A stretch of 59,726 nucleotides of DNA from NCBI GenBank assembly GCA_021780675.1, contig JAJXYH010000045.1, forward strand, positions 1 to 59,726, read 5' to 3'. Under the pieces are notes generated by a model that was not told the origin of the DNA, ran no database searches, and was given only the letters and a program-made list of their open reading frames with translations. The translations under genes and the position numbers were made by a program. This document shows positions 1 to 39,680 of this stretch, in pieces (within the stretch, counting starts at the first letter, position 1; the number at the start of each line of letters is the position of its first letter). Origin of the DNA: a bacterium (GTDB lineage Bacteria > Patescibacteriota > Microgenomatia > Levybacterales > UBA12049).

Positions 1-97
<97 letters not shown>

Positions 98-450
98 TAT
101 GTAATTTACATCGGGGCGCCTAAAGAGAAATCTTTAAGCTTGGTTATTCTAAAAACGCATATAGAGAGTGCGTAGAATAAAAAATTTACTAGTCAAAATC
201 GGTGAACCCCTAATAGGTACTAAAGAAACTTATGGGCAATACCGAGGTTCTAAATTACAGAACGGTTTTAATTAATCCTGTTTTTAGCACCGTATCGACT
301 TCTATGTTTAGTTAATATGGGCATAGGGAGGATTACTCAGTTTGAGTTTATCCTAAAAGACTAGCTCCTCCTAAAATGATGATTGGAGGATGAAGGTATA
401 GTCAGAACCTTCTAGTAATAGAAGGATGCGTTCCAAAAGTTTTGGAATCG
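98..450 (+). ncRNA. Group I intron (probably subgroup IA), ORF-less, inserted at 23S position L2500
   Basis: Splits the conserved GGCACCT|CGATGTC and ends in G450. P1: GGCACCU pairs with GGGCGCC with a U-G pair at the splice site. P10: ACATCG pairs with exon CGATGT. P4: TCGGT/ACCGA. P3: CTAGTC(189-194)/GACTAG(360-365). P7: GACT/AGTC in an S-like GAAGGTATAGTC. Two extra stems between P7 and P3'. P9 GTAA tetraloop. Confidence 0.93.
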
Positions 451-850
<400 letters not shown>

Positions 851-958
851 TAAATTTATTTCTCTTCACCTTTTGAAGAACCAACGGTTCTGAAAATCCC
901 AAGACTTTAGTCGAGGGATTAAGGATCAACACGTTCATTAAAAATTTGTGCTAAGGAT

Positions 959-1075
959 TTTCGGTCTTTTGTGCGAAGTGGCACCACCTCTTCCCATTCC
1001 GAACAGAGAAGTGAAACGCTTCAGCGCCTACGATACTTAAGCATTGGCTTATGGGACAATAGGTCAAGGCCGAGA
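959..1075 (+). rRNA. rrf: 5S rRNA
   Basis: Conserved CCCATTCCGAAC-AGAAGTGAAAC core; terminal helix TTTCGGTCTT/AAGGCCGAGA; follows 23S. Confidence 0.92.
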
Positions 1076-2265: not shown

Positions 2266-3345
2266 ATGGCTTCAAAAACAGCAGGTAAAGCAACCACAAT
2301 GGCCGATTTAATGAAATCGGTTAACACTAATTTTATTTCTCCGCAAAAAGGTCAGATTTTAGACGGTGTTATCACTAAATTAACTTCTTCGGAAATACTT
2401 GTTGATATCGGCGCAAAAACCGAAAGTTTAGTTTTAGAAAAAGATAAAAATATTTTAAGAAGTTTACTAACCGGCCTTAAAGTAGGGGATAAAGTAACAG
2501 TTTCCGTTCTTAATCCGGAATCCGATTACGGTAATCCGGTTGTTTCTCTTAGAAGGTTTAACGATGTAAAAGTATGGGAGAAATTAGATAAACTGCAAAA
2601 GGAAAAAATTCAGGTTGACGCAATGGTTGATGAAACAACCAAAGGAGGATTTTTGTTATCAACAAGTGACGGGATCTCCGGATTTTTGCCCAATTCTCAA
2701 GCTATTTTTACCAGCAATCCGCAGGGTTTGGTCGGATCAACAATTAAAGTGTCTGTAATAGAAATAAATAAAGCCCTAAAAAAAATCATTTTTTCGCAAA
2801 AAGCGATGCAAAGCGGGGAAGCTTTTGAAAAAGCGGTTAAATCCCTTAAATTAGGTCAAAAAACCACAACCACTATTTCCAACGTCGCACCTTTTGGTAT
2901 ATTTACTTTGATCAGTGTTTCGGATGATGTTAAGGTGGAAGGATTTATTCATATTTCCGAAGTTTCGTGGGAAAAACTTGCCACAATCCCCGATACTTTT
3001 AAGCATGGTGAAGAAATTGAAGTAATGGTCATCGGTTTTGATAAAGATGCAAAAAGAGTTAATTTGTCGATTAAAAAACTAACCCAAAATCCGTTCGAAG
3101 AAAAATTAAAATCATATGCAGTAGATCAAAAAATAACCGGAACTGTTGTCAAAGTTTTATCAACTGGAGTAATTGTTAGTTTGGGAGAGGGAATAGAAGG
3201 ATTTATTAAAAGAGACAAAATTCCACCGACTGTAAGTTATAAAGAAGGGTCTTCGGTAGAAGCCACAGTTGTCGAAGTTGACCAGAAAAAGCAAAGGCTG
3301 AGTTTAGTTCCGGTTTTAACCGAAAAGCCTTTGATGTATAGGTAA
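2266..3345 (+). CDS. rpsA: 30S ribosomal protein S1 (short, ~4 S1 domains)
   Basis: Repeated S1 motifs (VDIGAKTE, GFLPNSQ, GFIHISEVSW, RVNLSIKKL). Confidence 0.85.
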   Translation: MASKTAGKATTMADLMKSVNTNFISPQKGQILDGVITKLTSSEILVDIGAKTESLVLEKDKNILRSLLTGLKVGDKVTVSVLNPESDYGNPVVSLRRFNDVKVWEKLDKLQKEKIQVDAMVDETTKGGFLLSTSDGISGFLPNSQAIFTSNPQGLVGSTIKVSVIEINKALKKIIFSQKAMQSGEAFEKAVKSLKLGQKTTTTISNVAPFGIFTLISVSDDVKVEGFIHISEVSWEKLATIPDTFKHGEEIEVMVIGFDKDAKRVNLSIKKLTQNPFEEKLKSYAVDQKITGTVVKVLSTGVIVSLGEGIEGFIKRDKIPPTVSYKEGSSVEATVVEVDQKKQRLSLVPVLTEKPLMYR

Positions 3346-3351
3346 GGGAGC

Positions 3352-3463
3352 GAGTTTGCTGTAGCTCGTTTACGAAATTTTTCTGGTACATGCGCGCAAG
3401 TTGTCATATTATCAAAAGTGCGCTAATCCGTTCCTCAAAAATTTGTAAACTCGCCACAAACTC
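3352..3463. repeat. Dispersed ~110-nt structured element, copy 1
   Basis: Shares TTTTTCTGGTACATGCG and CTAATCCGTTCCTCAAAAATTT with 17706-17815; nested inverted repeats. Confidence 0.8.
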
Positions 3464-3475
3464 TAAATAAAAAAT

Positions 3476-4801
3476 ATGGCAAAAGTTAATACTTCTTTCG
3501 TCTGCCAGGAATGCGGCTATGAAAGCCCCAAATTTTTAGGTAAATGCCCCGAATGTGGAGAGTGGAATTCTTTACGCGAATTCAAAGTTCAAACTTCAAA
3601 ATTAAAAAACGAAGCCCCAAGTTATAAATCACAAACTAATATTACTCCCAAAACTCTTTCGCAAATTACTTTGGAAAAAAGCGACAGAATTTTAAGCGGA
3701 TTTTCAGAAATGGATAGTGTAATGGGAGGAGGGATAGTTTTGGGAAGCGTTACGCTTTTGGCAGGAGATCCCGGGATTGGGAAATCCACCCTCTTACTAC
3801 AAACAGCCCTTAATATAAGCACTAAAGGAAAAAGGGTGTTATATATTTCTGGCGAAGAGTCGCAACAGCAAATAAAATTAAGAGCTGAAAGACTTGCAAA
3901 AACAACAAAAAACGATAATTTATTTCTGGTTTCCCTAGTTGATACCGATGCGATTTGCACACTCATTGCAAATGAGCAGCCGGATTTTGCAATTATCGAT
4001 TCTGTTCAAACAATGGAGTCGGAAAATTTAACCGGACTCTCAGGAAGTGTAGGGCAAGTGCGTTATGCAGCCGCGGAGTTTATAAAACTTGCCAAAAATT
4101 TAAATATTCCCGTTATATTGGTAGGGCATGTTACCAAAGAGGGAATGGTAGCAGGTCCGATGATTTTGTCGCATATGGTAGATACGGTTTTGTTTTTAGA
4201 AGGAGAAAAAAACACAGGGACAAGACTTTTAAGGTCTTTAAAAAACCGCTTTGGGCCGGTTGATGAAGTTGGTGTTTTCGAAATGGCGGAGGGAGGAATG
4301 AAAGAATTAAAAAATCCGCAGGAATTATTTTTAACTAAGGGCAATAATTCTCCTGGCTCTGTTATGGTTGCCAACATGGAAGGTACACGTTCGTTCTTGG
4401 TTGAAGTTCAGGCTTTGGCAGTTTATTCAAAATTACCAATGCCGCGAAGGGTTTCCTCCGGCATCGACTACAAAAGAGTAGAGTTACTTTTAGCGGTTTT
4501 ACAAAAACACGCAAAATTGCCGGTTGATTCTATGGATATTTTTGTAAACGTTGCAGGAGGAATAAAAATAACCGACCCGGCCTGTGATTTGGGAATTTGC
4601 ATGGCGGTTTTATCAAGCATTAAAAACATAAATTTATCTAAATACGTCGGCATTGCAGAAGTAGGACTTTTAGGGGAATTAAGACAACCGTCATTTCTTG
4701 ATAAACGCGTTGCGCAAGCTAAAAAACTAGGAATTACAAAAATAATTACATCAAAAAATTACAAATCAATTGAAGAAGTAGTAAAATTATTTGGGAAGTA
4801 A
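3476..4801 (+). CDS. radA: DNA repair protein RadA/Sms
   Basis: N-terminal C4 zinc finger (CQECG...CPECG), Walker A GDPGIGKST, KNRFG motif, Lon-like C-terminus. Confidence 0.97.
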   Translation: MAKVNTSFVCQECGYESPKFLGKCPECGEWNSLREFKVQTSKLKNEAPSYKSQTNITPKTLSQITLEKSDRILSGFSEMDSVMGGGIVLGSVTLLAGDPGIGKSTLLLQTALNISTKGKRVLYISGEESQQQIKLRAERLAKTTKNDNLFLVSLVDTDAICTLIANEQPDFAIIDSVQTMESENLTGLSGSVGQVRYAAAEFIKLAKNLNIPVILVGHVTKEGMVAGPMILSHMVDTVLFLEGEKNTGTRLLRSLKNRFGPVDEVGVFEMAEGGMKELKNPQELFLTKGNNSPGSVMVANMEGTRSFLVEVQALAVYSKLPMPRRVSSGIDYKRVELLLAVLQKHAKLPVDSMDIFVNVAGGIKITDPACDLGICMAVLSSIKNINLSKYVGIAEVGLLGELRQPSFLDKRVAQAKKLGITKIITSKNYKSIEEVVKLFGK

Positions 4802-16848: not shown

Positions 16849-16919
16849 GGGCTTATAGGTAAATGGTATACCGGTGCATTCGCATTGCGCAGTTCCGAGT
16901 TCGATTCTCGGTAAGTCCA
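16849..16919 (+). tRNA. tRNA-Ala(CGC)
   Basis: Cloverleaf: GGGCTTA/TAAGTCC with G3-U70; GTGCA-TTCGCAT-TGCGC; T loop TTCGATT; CCA not encoded. Confidence 0.92.
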
Positions 16920-16936
16920 CTTAAATTGCGACACAA

Positions 16937-17008
16937 GGGCCGGTGGCTCAATGGTAGAGTACCTCCATGGCATGGAGGGGGTTGAGAGTTCGAGTCTCTT
17001 CCGGTCCA
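16937..17008 (+). tRNA. tRNA-Ala(GGC)
   Basis: GGGCCGG/CCGGTCC with G3-U70; CCTCC-ATGGCAT-GGAGG; T loop TTCGAGT. Confidence 0.94.
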
Positions 17009-17124
17009 CAACATCTCAAGGTAAGTTGAGGGGGTTAGAGTTCCTGCGCTTCGCTTGGCTTTGCACTGCGCTACACTTGTCCGGTTCACAAAATGCTATC
17101 TAGTATTTATTACTGAATATCTTG

Positions 17125-17255: not shown

Positions 17256-17558
17256 ATGGATTTCCAAGACAAAACATTAGTTTGTAGAGATTGTGGTAAG
17301 GAATTTGTTTGGACCGCATCGGAACAAGAATTTTATAAAAGTAAAGGTTTCGAAAACGCTCCTGTTAGATGTCCTGAATGTAGGGCTTTGAAAAAAGCCA
17401 GAATGAGGGATGGAGACGGTGGTGGTGGACCAAGACAAAGTTTCGAAATTACTTGCGCTGAGTGCGGGAAAACTGACACAGTGCCATTTAAACCAAAAGG
17501 CGATAGACCTGTTCTTTGCAGGGATTGCTTTAGAAAACAAAGGGAACAAGGAAAATAA
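17256..17558 (+). CDS. Double zinc-ribbon protein (CxxC-x17-CxxC type)
   Basis: CRDCGKEF...RCPECR and CAECG...PFKP...VLCRDCF. Confidence 0.88.
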   Translation: MDFQDKTLVCRDCGKEFVWTASEQEFYKSKGFENAPVRCPECRALKKARMRDGDGGGGPRQSFEITCAECGKTDTVPFKPKGDRPVLCRDCFRKQREQGK

Positions 17559-17705
17559 CTTTCCTAAAACCTTAATTACCGTTTTTATATAGATTTAATA
17601 TCTATTATTTTTTCTATTTATCCATTTAATATATTAAGAAGATGTATTTATAGTGGCAAAAATAAAATTGTTTATTACGTTTTTTTGTTGAAAATACGTT
17701 TAAGG

Positions 17706-17815
17706 ATTTTGCTGAGGTCGCTTACAAAATTTTTTCTGGTACATGCGTAAGCTATAAATATTTCCAAATGTTTACTAATCCGTTCCTCAAAAATTTATTA
17801 AGCTTCCCGTAAAAT
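17706..17815. repeat. Dispersed ~110-nt structured element, copy 2
   Basis: Same core motifs as 3352-3463 with different but still complementary stems. Confidence 0.8.
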
Positions 17816-17853: not shown

Positions 17854-19992
17854 CTATGGAGTAGGTGTACTGGTGGGAATAGGTAATCCACCTTCTGTTG
17901 TTGGTCCAGGTGTTGGGGTTGGGGTTGGGGTACCGGAAGGTCCTGGAATTTTAACTTCAGGACTTTGTTTTGGTAAGGTTGCGCTTGGCGTTGGGATTGT
18001 TAACGGATTTCGTGATTGTTGTTGATTTTGTTGTGCTTGAGTTTGTTGACCCAATTGTTGTTGTATTGCTTGAATTTCAGCGTCTATTTTACTCACGTTT
18101 GTCGGATCATTTGCGACTAATTGTTTAACTGTTTGATATTGGGTAAGAGCTCCTTGTAAATCTCCTTTTTCTTGTAATACATGTCCTAAATTATAATATG
18201 CATTTGGATAGTCGGGTTTTAAATTAATTGCCTGTTGGAATTGTACTTGGGCATTGTCCCATGATTTTAACTGGTAATAAATTCCACCTAAAGTAATATA
18301 TTCTTGTGGGTTAGTTGGATCAAGTTTTGTTGCTTGTTGTTGTGCAAGAACAGCAAATTGGTCTGCATTTTGCCCAAAGCCGATTAAAGCTCTGTAAATT
18401 GCCGATAGATTTTGCCAATTTAAGGCATTTTCGCTTGAAATTGTGGTTGTTTGCCTGGCCGAATTTATCGATTGTTGTACCAAAGTATAAATTGTTTGTG
18501 TTATTTGTTGACTTGGTTGTTGCCCCTGTGGGATAGACGAAGCCAGTGCATTAGCTAAGGCAAGGTTTGTTTGAGAGAAAACCCTGTAATATGAATCCAC
18601 ATATTTTCCGGTGAAGGTCGATAATGCCTGATTTTGCAGAGTGTAGGTGAGTTGTCCGTTGTTTTGGCTGGCTGCAACCAAAGATTTTTCAAATGTTATA
18701 TTGGCATTAATGTAGTTGTAAGAAAGAAATCCAAACAGAATGGATAAGATCAAGATGATTCCAAAGAATACATAAGAAAGTGTTCTGGTATTTTGTCTGC
18801 GTGAGTCTTGTTCCGGGGCAAAATTGATAATACCTTTTTTAAGCGCAACCAACTGAAGTTCTACATCAAAGTATTTATTGTCTTCTTTTAAGCCTTTGAT
18901 TGATGCATAAAGTCCCAGCAAGAAGAAAACTACAGTTAAGGTATAGAACGAAAGTGGAAGTACAAAACCTAAACCAAGCGCCAAGATAAGCGGAATAAAT
19001 AACGGTTTTTCTCTTATAACTCTATAGCAAAGGAATAAAAAGCTTAAAAGTCCTGTAAGGCCGGTAGTTGCTAGAAGTTCCAGCACAAAGCTTGAGGAAT
19101 GGAAGAACGCAACTGCCCAGTATTGGGAAGTGTTAAAGCTTGCCATTTTGAATTTGGTAAAGTCGATAAAGAATTCACCAAAGCCGGTTCCAAACAAAAG
19201 ACCCTGGAAAATTCTAGTGCTATCTTGAGAAATAGCGGCAAACGCGGTTTGGAAGCCAGCATCAAGTGGCAAAACAACAAACAAGTTTTGTTTTATTACT
19301 ATATAGATTGATGCCAAAAGACCTACTAATATGACTAACGAAGTTATTCCGTAAATTGCAATTTTAATTGCGGCATCTTTTTTGTTTAATAAATTTTGCC
19401 TATGACTTTTAAGTAAGAAAGGCGATAGGAAATAAATACCCATTGGAAGAACGAACAAAAGATATAATACTTGATCCATAAAAGATCCTGCCGGGGTAAA
19501 GGTTTGAACTTTAGTAAAGTCAAACGGAAAAACATATACTTTTGCATAAGCAAGAACCGAGATTAAAGCCAGAAGCGCAGCTCCTGTTAAAAGTGCGGCA
19601 ACTAAGCCCATTACGTATTTTTCTGTTTTTGCGTTATGGGTAATTAGGAAGAATGAAAGAAAAGCAAAAAGCGCTGGAACAAAATTTGCTAAAGAATCGT
19701 ATTTAGCAACAGAAAACAGGGTAGATAAGAAAATTGCGCCTATAACTAATAGTATTGGTAAATCGAATGGTGTTCTTCTAATGCTTACCTTTTCTGCCAA
19801 AATTGTTTTAACTCCGTATAAAAGAAACAGAGCAATTCCCATGAAGATTACAAAGGCTTGTTTAGGAAGAGTAAAAAAGTCAGTGGTCAGATTTGTAAAT
19901 AAAAGAGGGAAGACAACAAACAAAATCCCAATAAGTACTACTGAAGCTTTTTCTAAATAATTAATAAATTCAAGTTTCTGTTCTTGTTTCAT
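17854..19992 (-). CDS. O-antigen-ligase-like polytopic membrane protein with C-terminal TPRs and Gln/Pro-rich tail
   Basis: About 12 TM; GTGFGEF and HSSS..LELLATTGL (Wzy_C-like); TPR pattern LGGIYYQ...AYYNLGHVL. Confidence 0.7.
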   Translation of the reverse strand: MKQEQKLEFINYLEKASVVLIGILFVVFPLLFTNLTTDFFTLPKQAFVIFMGIALFLLYGVKTILAEKVSIRRTPFDLPILLVIGAIFLSTLFSVAKYDSLANFVPALFAFLSFFLITHNAKTEKYVMGLVAALLTGAALLALISVLAYAKVYVFPFDFTKVQTFTPAGSFMDQVLYLLFVLPMGIYFLSPFLLKSHRQNLLNKKDAAIKIAIYGITSLVILVGLLASIYIVIKQNLFVVLPLDAGFQTAFAAISQDSTRIFQGLLFGTGFGEFFIDFTKFKMASFNTSQYWAVAFFHSSSFVLELLATTGLTGLLSFLFLCYRVIREKPLFIPLILALGLGFVLPLSFYTLTVVFFLLGLYASIKGLKEDNKYFDVELQLVALKKGIINFAPEQDSRRQNTRTLSYVFFGIILILSILFGFLSYNYINANITFEKSLVAASQNNGQLTYTLQNQALSTFTGKYVDSYYRVFSQTNLALANALASSIPQGQQPSQQITQTIYTLVQQSINSARQTTTISSENALNWQNLSAIYRALIGFGQNADQFAVLAQQQATKLDPTNPQEYITLGGIYYQLKSWDNAQVQFQQAINLKPDYPNAYYNLGHVLQEKGDLQGALTQYQTVKQLVANDPTNVSKIDAEIQAIQQQLGQQTQAQQNQQQSRNPLTIPTPSATLPKQSPEVKIPGPSGTPTPTPTPGPTTEGGLPIPTSTPTP

Positions 19993-39525: not shown

Positions 39526-39597
39526 GCCCCTATAGCTCAACGGATAGAGCAGACCCGTCCTAAGGGTAAGATGGTGGTTCAATTCCGCCTAGGGGTA
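39526..39597 (+). tRNA. tRNA-Arg(CCT)
   Basis: GCCCCTA/TAGGGGT acceptor stem; loop GTCCTAA; T arm GGTGG-TTCAATT-CCGCC. Confidence 0.88.
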
Positions 39598-39603
39598 CGA
39601 ACG

Positions 39604-39675
39604 CGGGGTGTAGTGTATCGGTAACATGCATCGTTCGGGACGATGAGACACTGGGTTCAATTCCCAGCACCCCGA
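39604..39675 (+). tRNA. tRNA-Pro(CGG)
   Basis: CGGGGTG/CACCCCG; CATCG-TTCGGGA-CGATG; T arm CTGGG-TTCAATT-CCCAG. Confidence 0.93.
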
Positions 39676-39680
39676 CAAAA

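Follow-up and report, generated by a model that had tools for sequence, protein, structure and literature searches.

Palindromic elements dispersed between and within genes of Levybacteria are probably RPE-like, non-autonomous mobile DNA

Two copies of a palindromic element were analysed in a 59,726-nt contig (JAJXYH010000045.1, GenBank assembly GCA_021780675.1; hereafter the window) of a 960-kb Levybacterales genome (G000), and were traced through 245 genomes of the order. The element is probably a non-autonomous, hairpin-shaped mobile DNA of Levybacteria and a few other Microgenomates, resembling the Rickettsia palindromic elements (RPEs), and the palindromes are classified as a new family within a known class, that of RPE-like selfish DNA akin to MITEs (transposable elements of the miniature inverted-repeat type). 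Copies are inserted behind stop codons in tight gene junctions, at the tips of other palindromes, and into loops of housekeeping proteins. A discrete or regulatory RNA is not favoured, because the element lies in frame in unrelated genes, ranges from 0 to 18 copies among close relatives, is present or absent at the same sites within one genus, and occurs in minimal and nested forms. When copies were collected genome-wide and across the candidate phyla radiation (CPR) and a covariance model was built, as an initial annotation of the window had proposed, a dispersed DNA family emerged and not a discrete RNA gene.

The covariance model was built from three copies (the two window copies and one from a relative), and the conserved scaffold was deduced from 60–90 copies placed side by side. 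Open reading frames (ORFs) were called by a simple longest-ORF heuristic, and gene names that carry no Pfam match are our own reading of the sequences. At least 91 distinct copies of 72–150 nt were recovered, plus minimal forms of 35 nt, giving a family of dispersed rod-like palindromes of 35–150 nt with at least five apical subfamilies. Across the family, an outer scaffold is conserved, GC-TGAGGTC-GCTTAC-G-AAAATTTT ... AAAATTTT-GTAAGC-TCCCC-GC, in which an outer stem (P1) of variable sequence, closing GC/GC in every case, is followed by an asymmetric internal loop (5' TGAGGTC, 3' TCCCC, GG paired with CC), a covarying stem P2 (GCTTAC/GTAAGC), a bulged purine, and the self-complementary octamer AAAATTTT, present on both sides of the rod. 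The apical domain between the octamers measures 0–90 nt and falls into several lineage-specific subfamilies. The two sequence cores pointed out by the initial annotation form the apical domain of subfamily II, whose apical internal loop is conserved across five genera; they are fixed within that one subfamily alone, the part conserved family-wide being the outer scaffold. The cores, CTGGTACATGC (11 nt) and TAATCCGTTCCTC (13 nt), are identical between the two window copies while the stems have diverged, which is attributed to shared subfamily descent and to stronger constraint on the apical internal loop. This loop is presumably kept because it is needed for propagation, and may have a role at the host level.

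Minimal forms contain one AAAATTTT and no apical domain, and scaffolds nested within scaffolds also exist. One membrane-protein-like ORF holds a 35-nt minimal form in frame (L054, minus strand, 1878-1912) and gains only AEVANENFDGSP from it. At another locus (L093, minus strand, from 6276, in Gottesmanbacteria JACREM01), a whole scaffold element stands inside the apical domain of a second one, so that self-nesting exists outside Levybacteria. Uninterrupted P1 complementarity of at least 6 bp was found in 34% of copies, against 3% when flanks were paired across copies. The inner 4–6 bp of P1 move with the element, since near-identical copies in one genome (G095) share AGCGC/GCGCT-like ends, and the outer part is often made of the arms of a host palindrome at whose tip the element is inserted; together, these two sources account for the copy-specific complementarity of P1. 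Over its whole length the element is an imperfect palindrome that closes GC/GC and has no ORF of its own, in line with the short, non-coding, inverted-repeat definition of a MITE.

For the distribution, matches to the covariance model were obtained in 41 of the 245 genomes, and a scaffold pattern with two mismatches allowed detected the element in 48 of the 245 genomes and in 32 of 103 genera, with one control match. All but one of the scaffold-pattern carriers belong to a single family (f1, Levybacteria). Carrier genomes hold 1–18 copies each, and a single apical subfamily dominates in each genome. When 185,579 species genomes were scanned with an exact pattern, full elements were found only in Levybacteria, two Gottesmanbacteria, "Microgenomates" and Patescibacteria. 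Matches of the 5' half-pattern outside the CPR (Clostridiales, Dyadobacter and others) were set aside as chance, having neither a 3' half nor a match to the model. A phage vector was looked for in IMG/VR, where no scaffold match was found, and in a full-text literature search, in-frame palindromic repeats were nowhere described for CPR.

Most copies occupy tight gaps between co-oriented genes, at a median of 15 nt from the upstream stop to the scaffold, and of 39 nt from the scaffold to the next start. The genes on either side, as judged from their termini, presumably include rpsC and rplP, rpoA and rplQ, the gene before dnaJ, guaA and glyA. They are distinct genes and not halves of one, and a split-gene or intron reading of the tight intergenic copies was rejected for this reason. 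Filled and empty versions of the same junction were found within genus g50. Between rplN and rplX, 11 congeners read GTGTTATAATATG / GTGTTATAATATGAAA, with overlapping stop and start, and G095 carries 123 extra bases after the TAA, comprising the element and a 3' tail that bears a ribosome-binding site (AAGG), and TATAA flanks the insert on either side; this is the sole filled site resolved to the base. A congener (G106) has a palindrome of a different family at exactly the same point. The 74-nt core of the G095 copy is identical to that of a second copy 1.6 kb away, which indicates a recent duplication. The second copy lies between rpsC and rplP, a junction that is empty (GAATAATG) in four congeners, and stands at the apex of a palindrome with heptamer arms; the same arms occur without the element in three other congeners. 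A 35-nt minimal form is found at the rpsC–rplP junction in another genus. As judged from the compared genomes, mobility is shown by these junctions, which are filled or empty among members of one genus. The insertions are recent in some lineages, and in G000 they are old.

Direct repeats were sought at the ends of the copies: GCGC...GCGC was found in 43 of 94 and GC...GC in 37, both of them palindromic and hence indistinguishable from the ends of the element. Other palindrome families lie at the same points in g50, after the rplN stop and between rpsC and rplP (L254, which is G106:C33, and L256, L261 and L255), with arms of heptamer repeats (AATTGGA/AATTGGG), and in one case with a GC-rich apical insert of about 150 nt.

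Between the S1-domain gene and radA, the gap that holds the first window copy measures 0–13 nt in three genera and 130 nt in G000, and contains unrelated palindromes in other genera. The same junction (window 3346-3475; loci L133-L155) is an insertion hot spot across Levybacteria, filled elsewhere by unrelated palindromes of 68–250 nt, several of which are built of 7-nt units (AAAGTCA in L134, GATAGAT-type in L137).

Copies inside genes were identified at 24 of 91 loci, all within long ORFs, in the same frame throughout and free of stops, where the scaffold reads AEVAxENF ... ENFxSSP. The host genes, as we read them from sequence, would encode topoisomerase I (TopA, at two sites), DprA, a pseudouridine-synthase-like protein and a glycosyltransferase. 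In G182 (971 kb, three contigs), 8 of 14 copies are within genes, which we take to encode two glycosyltransferases, RecJ, methionine aminopeptidase (Map), IF-2, LeuRS, phosphoribosyl pyrophosphate (PRPP) synthetase (Prs) and DnaX. Pfam searches of the G182 hosts recovered Peptidase_M24 (Map), DHH and RecJ_OB (RecJ), and Pribosyltran_N and Pribosyltran (Prs), the domains being split or set apart by the insert. Counted from GCT to CCG, the length is divisible by three in 48 of 91 copies, against an expected third, and 63 of 91 have an open AEVA frame. In TopA, the element is found in two genera in a loop before YRFKANGSVLxFDGFL that is 39–45 residues long and empty in most genera; quite different inserts fill it elsewhere, including in a congener of one carrier.

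Across genera (loci L156-L185), the TopA loop ranges from 39 to 85 residues and has taken up six or more unrelated inserts that are of low complexity or derived from repeats; another variable site is found near residue 200. In radA of G007 (L151/L155, G007:C3:13861-15300), two matching pieces about 120 nt apart lie in one open frame of 495 residues, which suggests an in-frame insertion at about residue 143; the radA products of G005 and G037 exceed the usual length by about 50 residues.

The orientation of the element was found to be nearly uniform. All 24 in-gene copies are sense and none is antisense, and 40 of the 91 copies lie between two sense genes, with a single copy between two antisense ones. 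Over the 3–8 kb around each copy, GC skew is positive in the orientation of the element at 89 of 91 loci, a test that rests on short loci except in G000 and G182. In G182, each of the 14 copies occupies the G-rich strand of its contig, and the three contigs that hold the four G000 copies all have positive GC skew; on the window contig this skew accompanies a coding capacity evenly split between the strands. On one contig, three copies share an orientation and two of them lie among genes on the opposite strand. Stop codons do not explain the bias, since 60 of 91 copies have an open frame in the reverse complement. In most bacteria, the G-rich strand is the one exposed as lagging-strand template. 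Single-strand transposition of IS200/IS605 is reportedly coupled to replication, with a strand bias of this kind.

Folding was assessed for both window copies, which lie on the plus strand where the initial annotation had placed them, with identical cores. The three stems it had described all pair: the outer (GAGTTTG/CAAACTC in copy 1, ATTTTGC/GTAAAAT in copy 2), the middle (TTTAC-G-AAATTTTT/AAAAATTT-GTAAA and GCTTAC-A-AAATTTTT/AAAAATTT..TAAGC) and the inner (GCGCA/TGCGC and GTAAGC/GTTTAC). Its proposal that structure is kept through compensatory change was supported by 12 subfamily-II copies, in which 12 of 33 pairs show double changes (equalled in 0 of 500 shuffles), and 89.8% of cells are paired, against 36–53% with the partner slid. 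The cores had been called unpaired-looking; they are fixed between the copies and partly paired, GGTAC with GTTCC, including one covarying pair (AU 7, GC 4, CG 1 among the 12 copies). In the scaffold loop of copy 1, GG/CC has become GC/GC through a double change (alignment columns 15 and 117). Both plus strands fold better than shuffled sequence, with z-scores of -3.4 and -2.4 for the two copies; a good fold is also obtained for the minus strand of copy 1 (z = -4.8), as would be expected of a DNA palindrome. In such a palindrome, covariation taken alone is no evidence of RNA function. Arm-to-arm template switching, by which quasi-palindromes are corrected, is a known mutational process and could produce apparent compensatory change without selection on RNA. 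Assigning a strand from G.U pairs at first favoured plus for subfamily II, which has G.T on the plus strand, and was dropped as subfamily I shows the opposite asymmetry, with A.C there.

Taking these observations together, we infer that the element is inserted as a folded single strand at the replication fork. It would move as single-stranded DNA folded into a hairpin, mobilised by an enzyme acting in trans, and would enter the strand that is transiently single-stranded at the fork, with a preference for the apex of existing palindromes. Such insertion would explain both the near-uniform orientation and the copy-specific outer complementarity.

Several observations weigh against a mobile DNA of this kind. 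No clear target-site duplication was seen, with one filled site resolved to the base. The conserved asymmetric loops and the apical cores shared across genera exceed what neutral junk would keep, and may reflect recognition by a mobilising enzyme or a role at the host level. Co-orientation with genes and with replication is not cleanly separable, about five copies lie among antisense genes, and wobble asymmetry points to neither strand in particular. A mobilising enzyme was searched for as well. No Y1/HUH gene was detected by hidden Markov model (HMM) and tblastn searches of G000 or of the 14-copy G182, and the linked HUH/RAYT gene suggested by the initial annotation (RAYT, REP-associated tyrosine transposase; REP, repetitive extragenic palindromic sequence) is thus absent from both. 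Reverse transcriptase showed no association with the element (present in 3 of the 12 carriers and 2 of the 11 non-carriers examined) and TnpB was found in none of the 23 genomes tested. A search for an autonomous parent was negative, and no scaffold halves flank an ORF; an apparent split element (L089) was rejected as a parent, being a truncated 5' half combined with a false match inside rpmE.

It is possible, though doubtful, that the element represents an undescribed form of DNA movement, in which a strand-specific hairpin inserts at palindrome apices and behind stop codons without HUH/Y1, TnpB or reverse transcriptase. The agent would then be either a CPR enzyme that has escaped recognition or the machinery of replication, through template switching at hairpins; the TGAGGTC/TCCCC loop would serve as the recognition site, and the duplicated AAAATTTT would be where apical domains are exchanged as modules. 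Levybacteria would in that case write loops of 25–38 residues into essential proteins by a mechanism without a characterised counterpart.

A functional structured RNA (a cis-regulatory leader, small RNA, ribozyme or protein-binding RNA, with the loops as ligand or protein sites) would account for the strong covariation, the cores of subfamily II conserved across genera, and the nearly constant sense orientation to flanking genes, and some subfamily-II copies precede radA, dnaJ and a 5'-3' exonuclease. It is nevertheless very unlikely, given that the element is in frame in at least 24 unrelated coding sequences and that its neighbours are diverse (radA, dnaJ, rplC, rplP, rplX, rplQ, glyA, guaA, convergent gaps and gene interiors), a diversity on which a repair or heat-shock regulon was also rejected. 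The spread of 0 to 18 copies among relatives with one subfamily per genome, the sites empty in congeners, and the A.C mismatches of subfamily I on the sense strand speak against it too. Searches of Rfam 15 at both window loci gave nothing at gathering thresholds and only chance-level hits in sensitive mode (E > 0.3), in agreement with the initial annotation, which had recognised no Rfam family, and no promoter or terminator signal was found. Hammerhead, K-turn, H/ACA-like guide and signal recognition particle (SRP)-like loop readings were rejected as the consensus positions misfit and the element is translated in genes. Among the three options offered initially, the REP/MITE-like single-strand substrate is therefore the one favoured, and the ribozyme and protein-binding RNA are unsupported. 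An element acting at the RNA level, either an intervening sequence cut from transcripts or a hairpin spreading through an RNA intermediate, would suit the 24 sense and 0 antisense in-gene copies, given that the reverse strand is often open, and its rod would bring the two flanks together. It is highly improbable: RNA excision would make the stop-free frames and the enrichment in multiples of three needless, the genes on either side of intergenic copies are distinct, a few copies run antisense to neighbouring genes, and reverse transcriptase is absent from G183 (18 copies), G095 (which holds the identical copies) and G000.

Mobilisation of a REPIN-like element (a doublet of REP sequences) by the RAYT-like HUH/Y1 transposases of the order, with the enzyme lost in some genomes, is unlikely, even with 132 of the 245 genomes encoding PF01797 (Y1/HUH) proteins, up to 8 per genome. 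Many of these are about 210–250 residues long, and those of about 220–250 residues with HUH (NHFH) and Tyr motifs were the ones counted in its favour; the hairpin and strand bias would also fit single-strand HUH chemistry as generally understood for IS200/IS605 and REP/RAYT. Against it stand the missing Y1 homologue in G000 (4 copies) and G182, the weak difference in Y1 occurrence between covariance-model carriers (27 of 41) and genomes without a match (105 of 204), and a Y1 copy number in genus g50 that does not track the presence of the element. No copy was seen beside a Y1 gene, and the element is longer than a REP and has no recognisable GTAG-type head. The RAYT-like PF01797 proteins (examples L248-L252) carry YNRG, MPNHFH and RYIxxNP motifs, and are unusually many for genomes below 1 Mb. 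An attC-like recombination site, folded as single-stranded DNA at the boundaries of gene cassettes, would have a similar outer stem, unpaired central spacer, inner stem with an extrahelical base and variable terminal structure, and copies on one contig are co-oriented. This reading is extremely improbable: RYYYAAC/GTTRRRY boxes are missing, the ends being GC-TGAGGTC ... TCCCC-GC, copies are found within essential genes and at junctions of ribosomal protein genes and not at cassette ends, and their spacing is irregular (0.7 to over 100 kb).

The RPE-like mobile DNA favoured here was compared with known systems. RPEs are palindromes of about 100–150 bp in several subfamilies of a small reduced genome, found between genes and in frame in housekeeping genes, with a conserved peptide per copy and no known transposase (Ogata et al. 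2000, as summarised in PMC10969869). The Levybacteria element shares with them its multiple palindromic copies, subfamilies, in-frame housekeeping-gene copies with a conserved peptide, and lack of a known transposase. Compared by description, it differs in belonging to another phylum (CPR Microgenomates), in its conserved asymmetric loop, exchangeable apical domain, 35-nt forms and nesting in palindromes, and in its near-absolute orientation both to genes and to the G-rich strand. Homology to RPE-1 to RPE-10 of Rickettsia is unlikely, because full scaffold matches among the 185,579 species are confined to CPR.

Bacterial MITEs that form long RNA or DNA hairpins include Correia/NEMIS, ERIC, BOX and RUP (reviewed in PMC10969869). 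The element is likewise short, non-coding, non-autonomous and multi-copy, is presumably co-transcribed in operon gaps and is occasionally fused in frame. In contrast to them, it has neither a matching parent insertion sequence (IS) nor a consistent target-site duplication, and its outermost arms vary while internal positions are conserved. It resembles REPs and REPINs as a hairpin repeat of operon gaps with the size of REPIN doublets, a likely single-strand hairpin substrate in an order where Y1 genes are frequent, and differs in having no cognate Y1 in G000 or G182, copies in coding sequences, and no REP-type head. With IS200/IS605 it shares the strong bias to the strand of positive GC skew and imperfect hairpins with conserved unpaired bases; unlike these, it is one whole-length palindrome in place of two subterminal hairpins, lacks TnpA and TnpB, and shows no fixed tetra- or pentanucleotide target. 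The likeness to attC (a folded single strand of stems with unpaired spacer, extrahelical base and variable tip) is offset by the lack of an R/L box consensus, integrase or cassette arrays, and by its presence inside essential genes.

The analysis removes a false lead, as no new ribozyme or riboswitch class is involved, and shows that, when covariation is found in a DNA palindrome, the distribution of copies should be checked before RNA function is read from it. Ultra-small CPR genomes, with almost no spare DNA, tolerate selfish repeats in essential genes (topoisomerase I, RecJ, methionine aminopeptidase, PRPP synthetase), a habit best known from Rickettsia. The strict orientation, the targeting of palindrome apices and the lack of a known transposase provide a usable handle on the insertion mechanism. 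For annotation, such inserts lengthen CPR proteins, split Pfam domains, and can mimic structured-RNA candidates.

For the window and its genome, coordinates are collected in Table 1. Copies 1 and 2 have the same orientation and 81% overall identity. The two-core pattern occurs at just these two places in the 960-kb genome and not at all in shuffles of the window; the family as a whole has exactly four copies in G000 by the covariance model, with which nhmmer agrees, so that the two reported initially were an undercount. Copy 1 occupies the gap between the stop codon of the S1-domain gene (3343-3345) and the radA start at 3476. Copy 2 has a scaffold near consensus, GC-TGAGGTC-GCTTAC-A-AAATTTTT ... 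AAAAATTT-ATTAAGC-TTCCC-GT. The same 130-nt gap between the S1-domain gene and radA was found in 9 of 9 contigs with identical RadA, which indicates that this copy is fixed. Stop codons are present in the AEVA frame of subfamily II. The window copies are best read as old, immobile copies, and the four diverged G000 copies are most likely fossils without a dedicated host function.

Table 1. Copies of the palindromic element in G000, their parts, and the genes that flank the two window copies. Positions refer to the window unless a contig is given.
Feature	Position	Strand	Description
Copy 1	3352..3463	+	Palindromic element of apical subfamily II with degenerate scaffold; between S1-domain gene stop and radA start
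Copy 1, outer stem P1, 5' strand GAGTTTGC	3352..3359	+	Pairs with ACAAACTC at 3456-3463; closing pair is a C.A mismatch
Copy 1, 5' scaffold	3360..3382	+	Loop TGTAGCTC (family consensus TGAGGTC), P2 GTTTAC, bulged G3374, P3 AAATTTTT
Copy 1, apical domain	3383..3436	+	Core 1 3383-3393; inner stem GCGCA/TGCGC 3394-3398 and 3419-3423; apical loop; core 2 3424-3436
Copy 1, 3' scaffold	3437..3455	+	P3' AAAAATTT, P2' GTAAAC, loop TCGCC (consensus TCCCC)
Copy 2	17705..17815	+	Subfamily II; convergent gap between treble-clef zinc-finger gene and tetratricopeptide repeat (TPR) gene
Copy 2, apical domain	17736..17788	+	Core 1 17736-17746; inner stem GTAAGC/GTTTAC including a G.T pair; core 2 17776-17788
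S1-domain protein gene, upstream of copy 1	2266..3345	+	Synteny with radA order-wide
radA, downstream of copy 1	3476..4801	+	
Treble-clef zinc-finger protein gene, upstream of copy 2	17256..17558	+	PF13451, PF23477
TPR-repeat protein gene, downstream of and convergent to copy 2	17854..19992	-	
Third G000 copy	C28:11250-11357		Between dnaK and dnaJ; subfamily II
Fourth G000 copy	C36:15033-15152		Upstream of rplC; subfamily other than II

Other features of the window were recorded beside these. The 712-residue TPR protein next to copy 2 has a Pro/Thr/Gly-rich tail (17854-17990, minus strand), which derives from GGTTGGGGTTGGGGT-type repeats on the plus strand. The start of the window (1-1075) holds the 3' end of a 23S rRNA gene followed by a 5S rRNA gene, and tRNA genes are found at 16849-17009 and 39526-39676 (tRNA-Ala with CGC and GGC, tRNA-Arg with CCT, and tRNA-Pro with CGG); neither the rRNA nor the tRNA genes have a link to the element.

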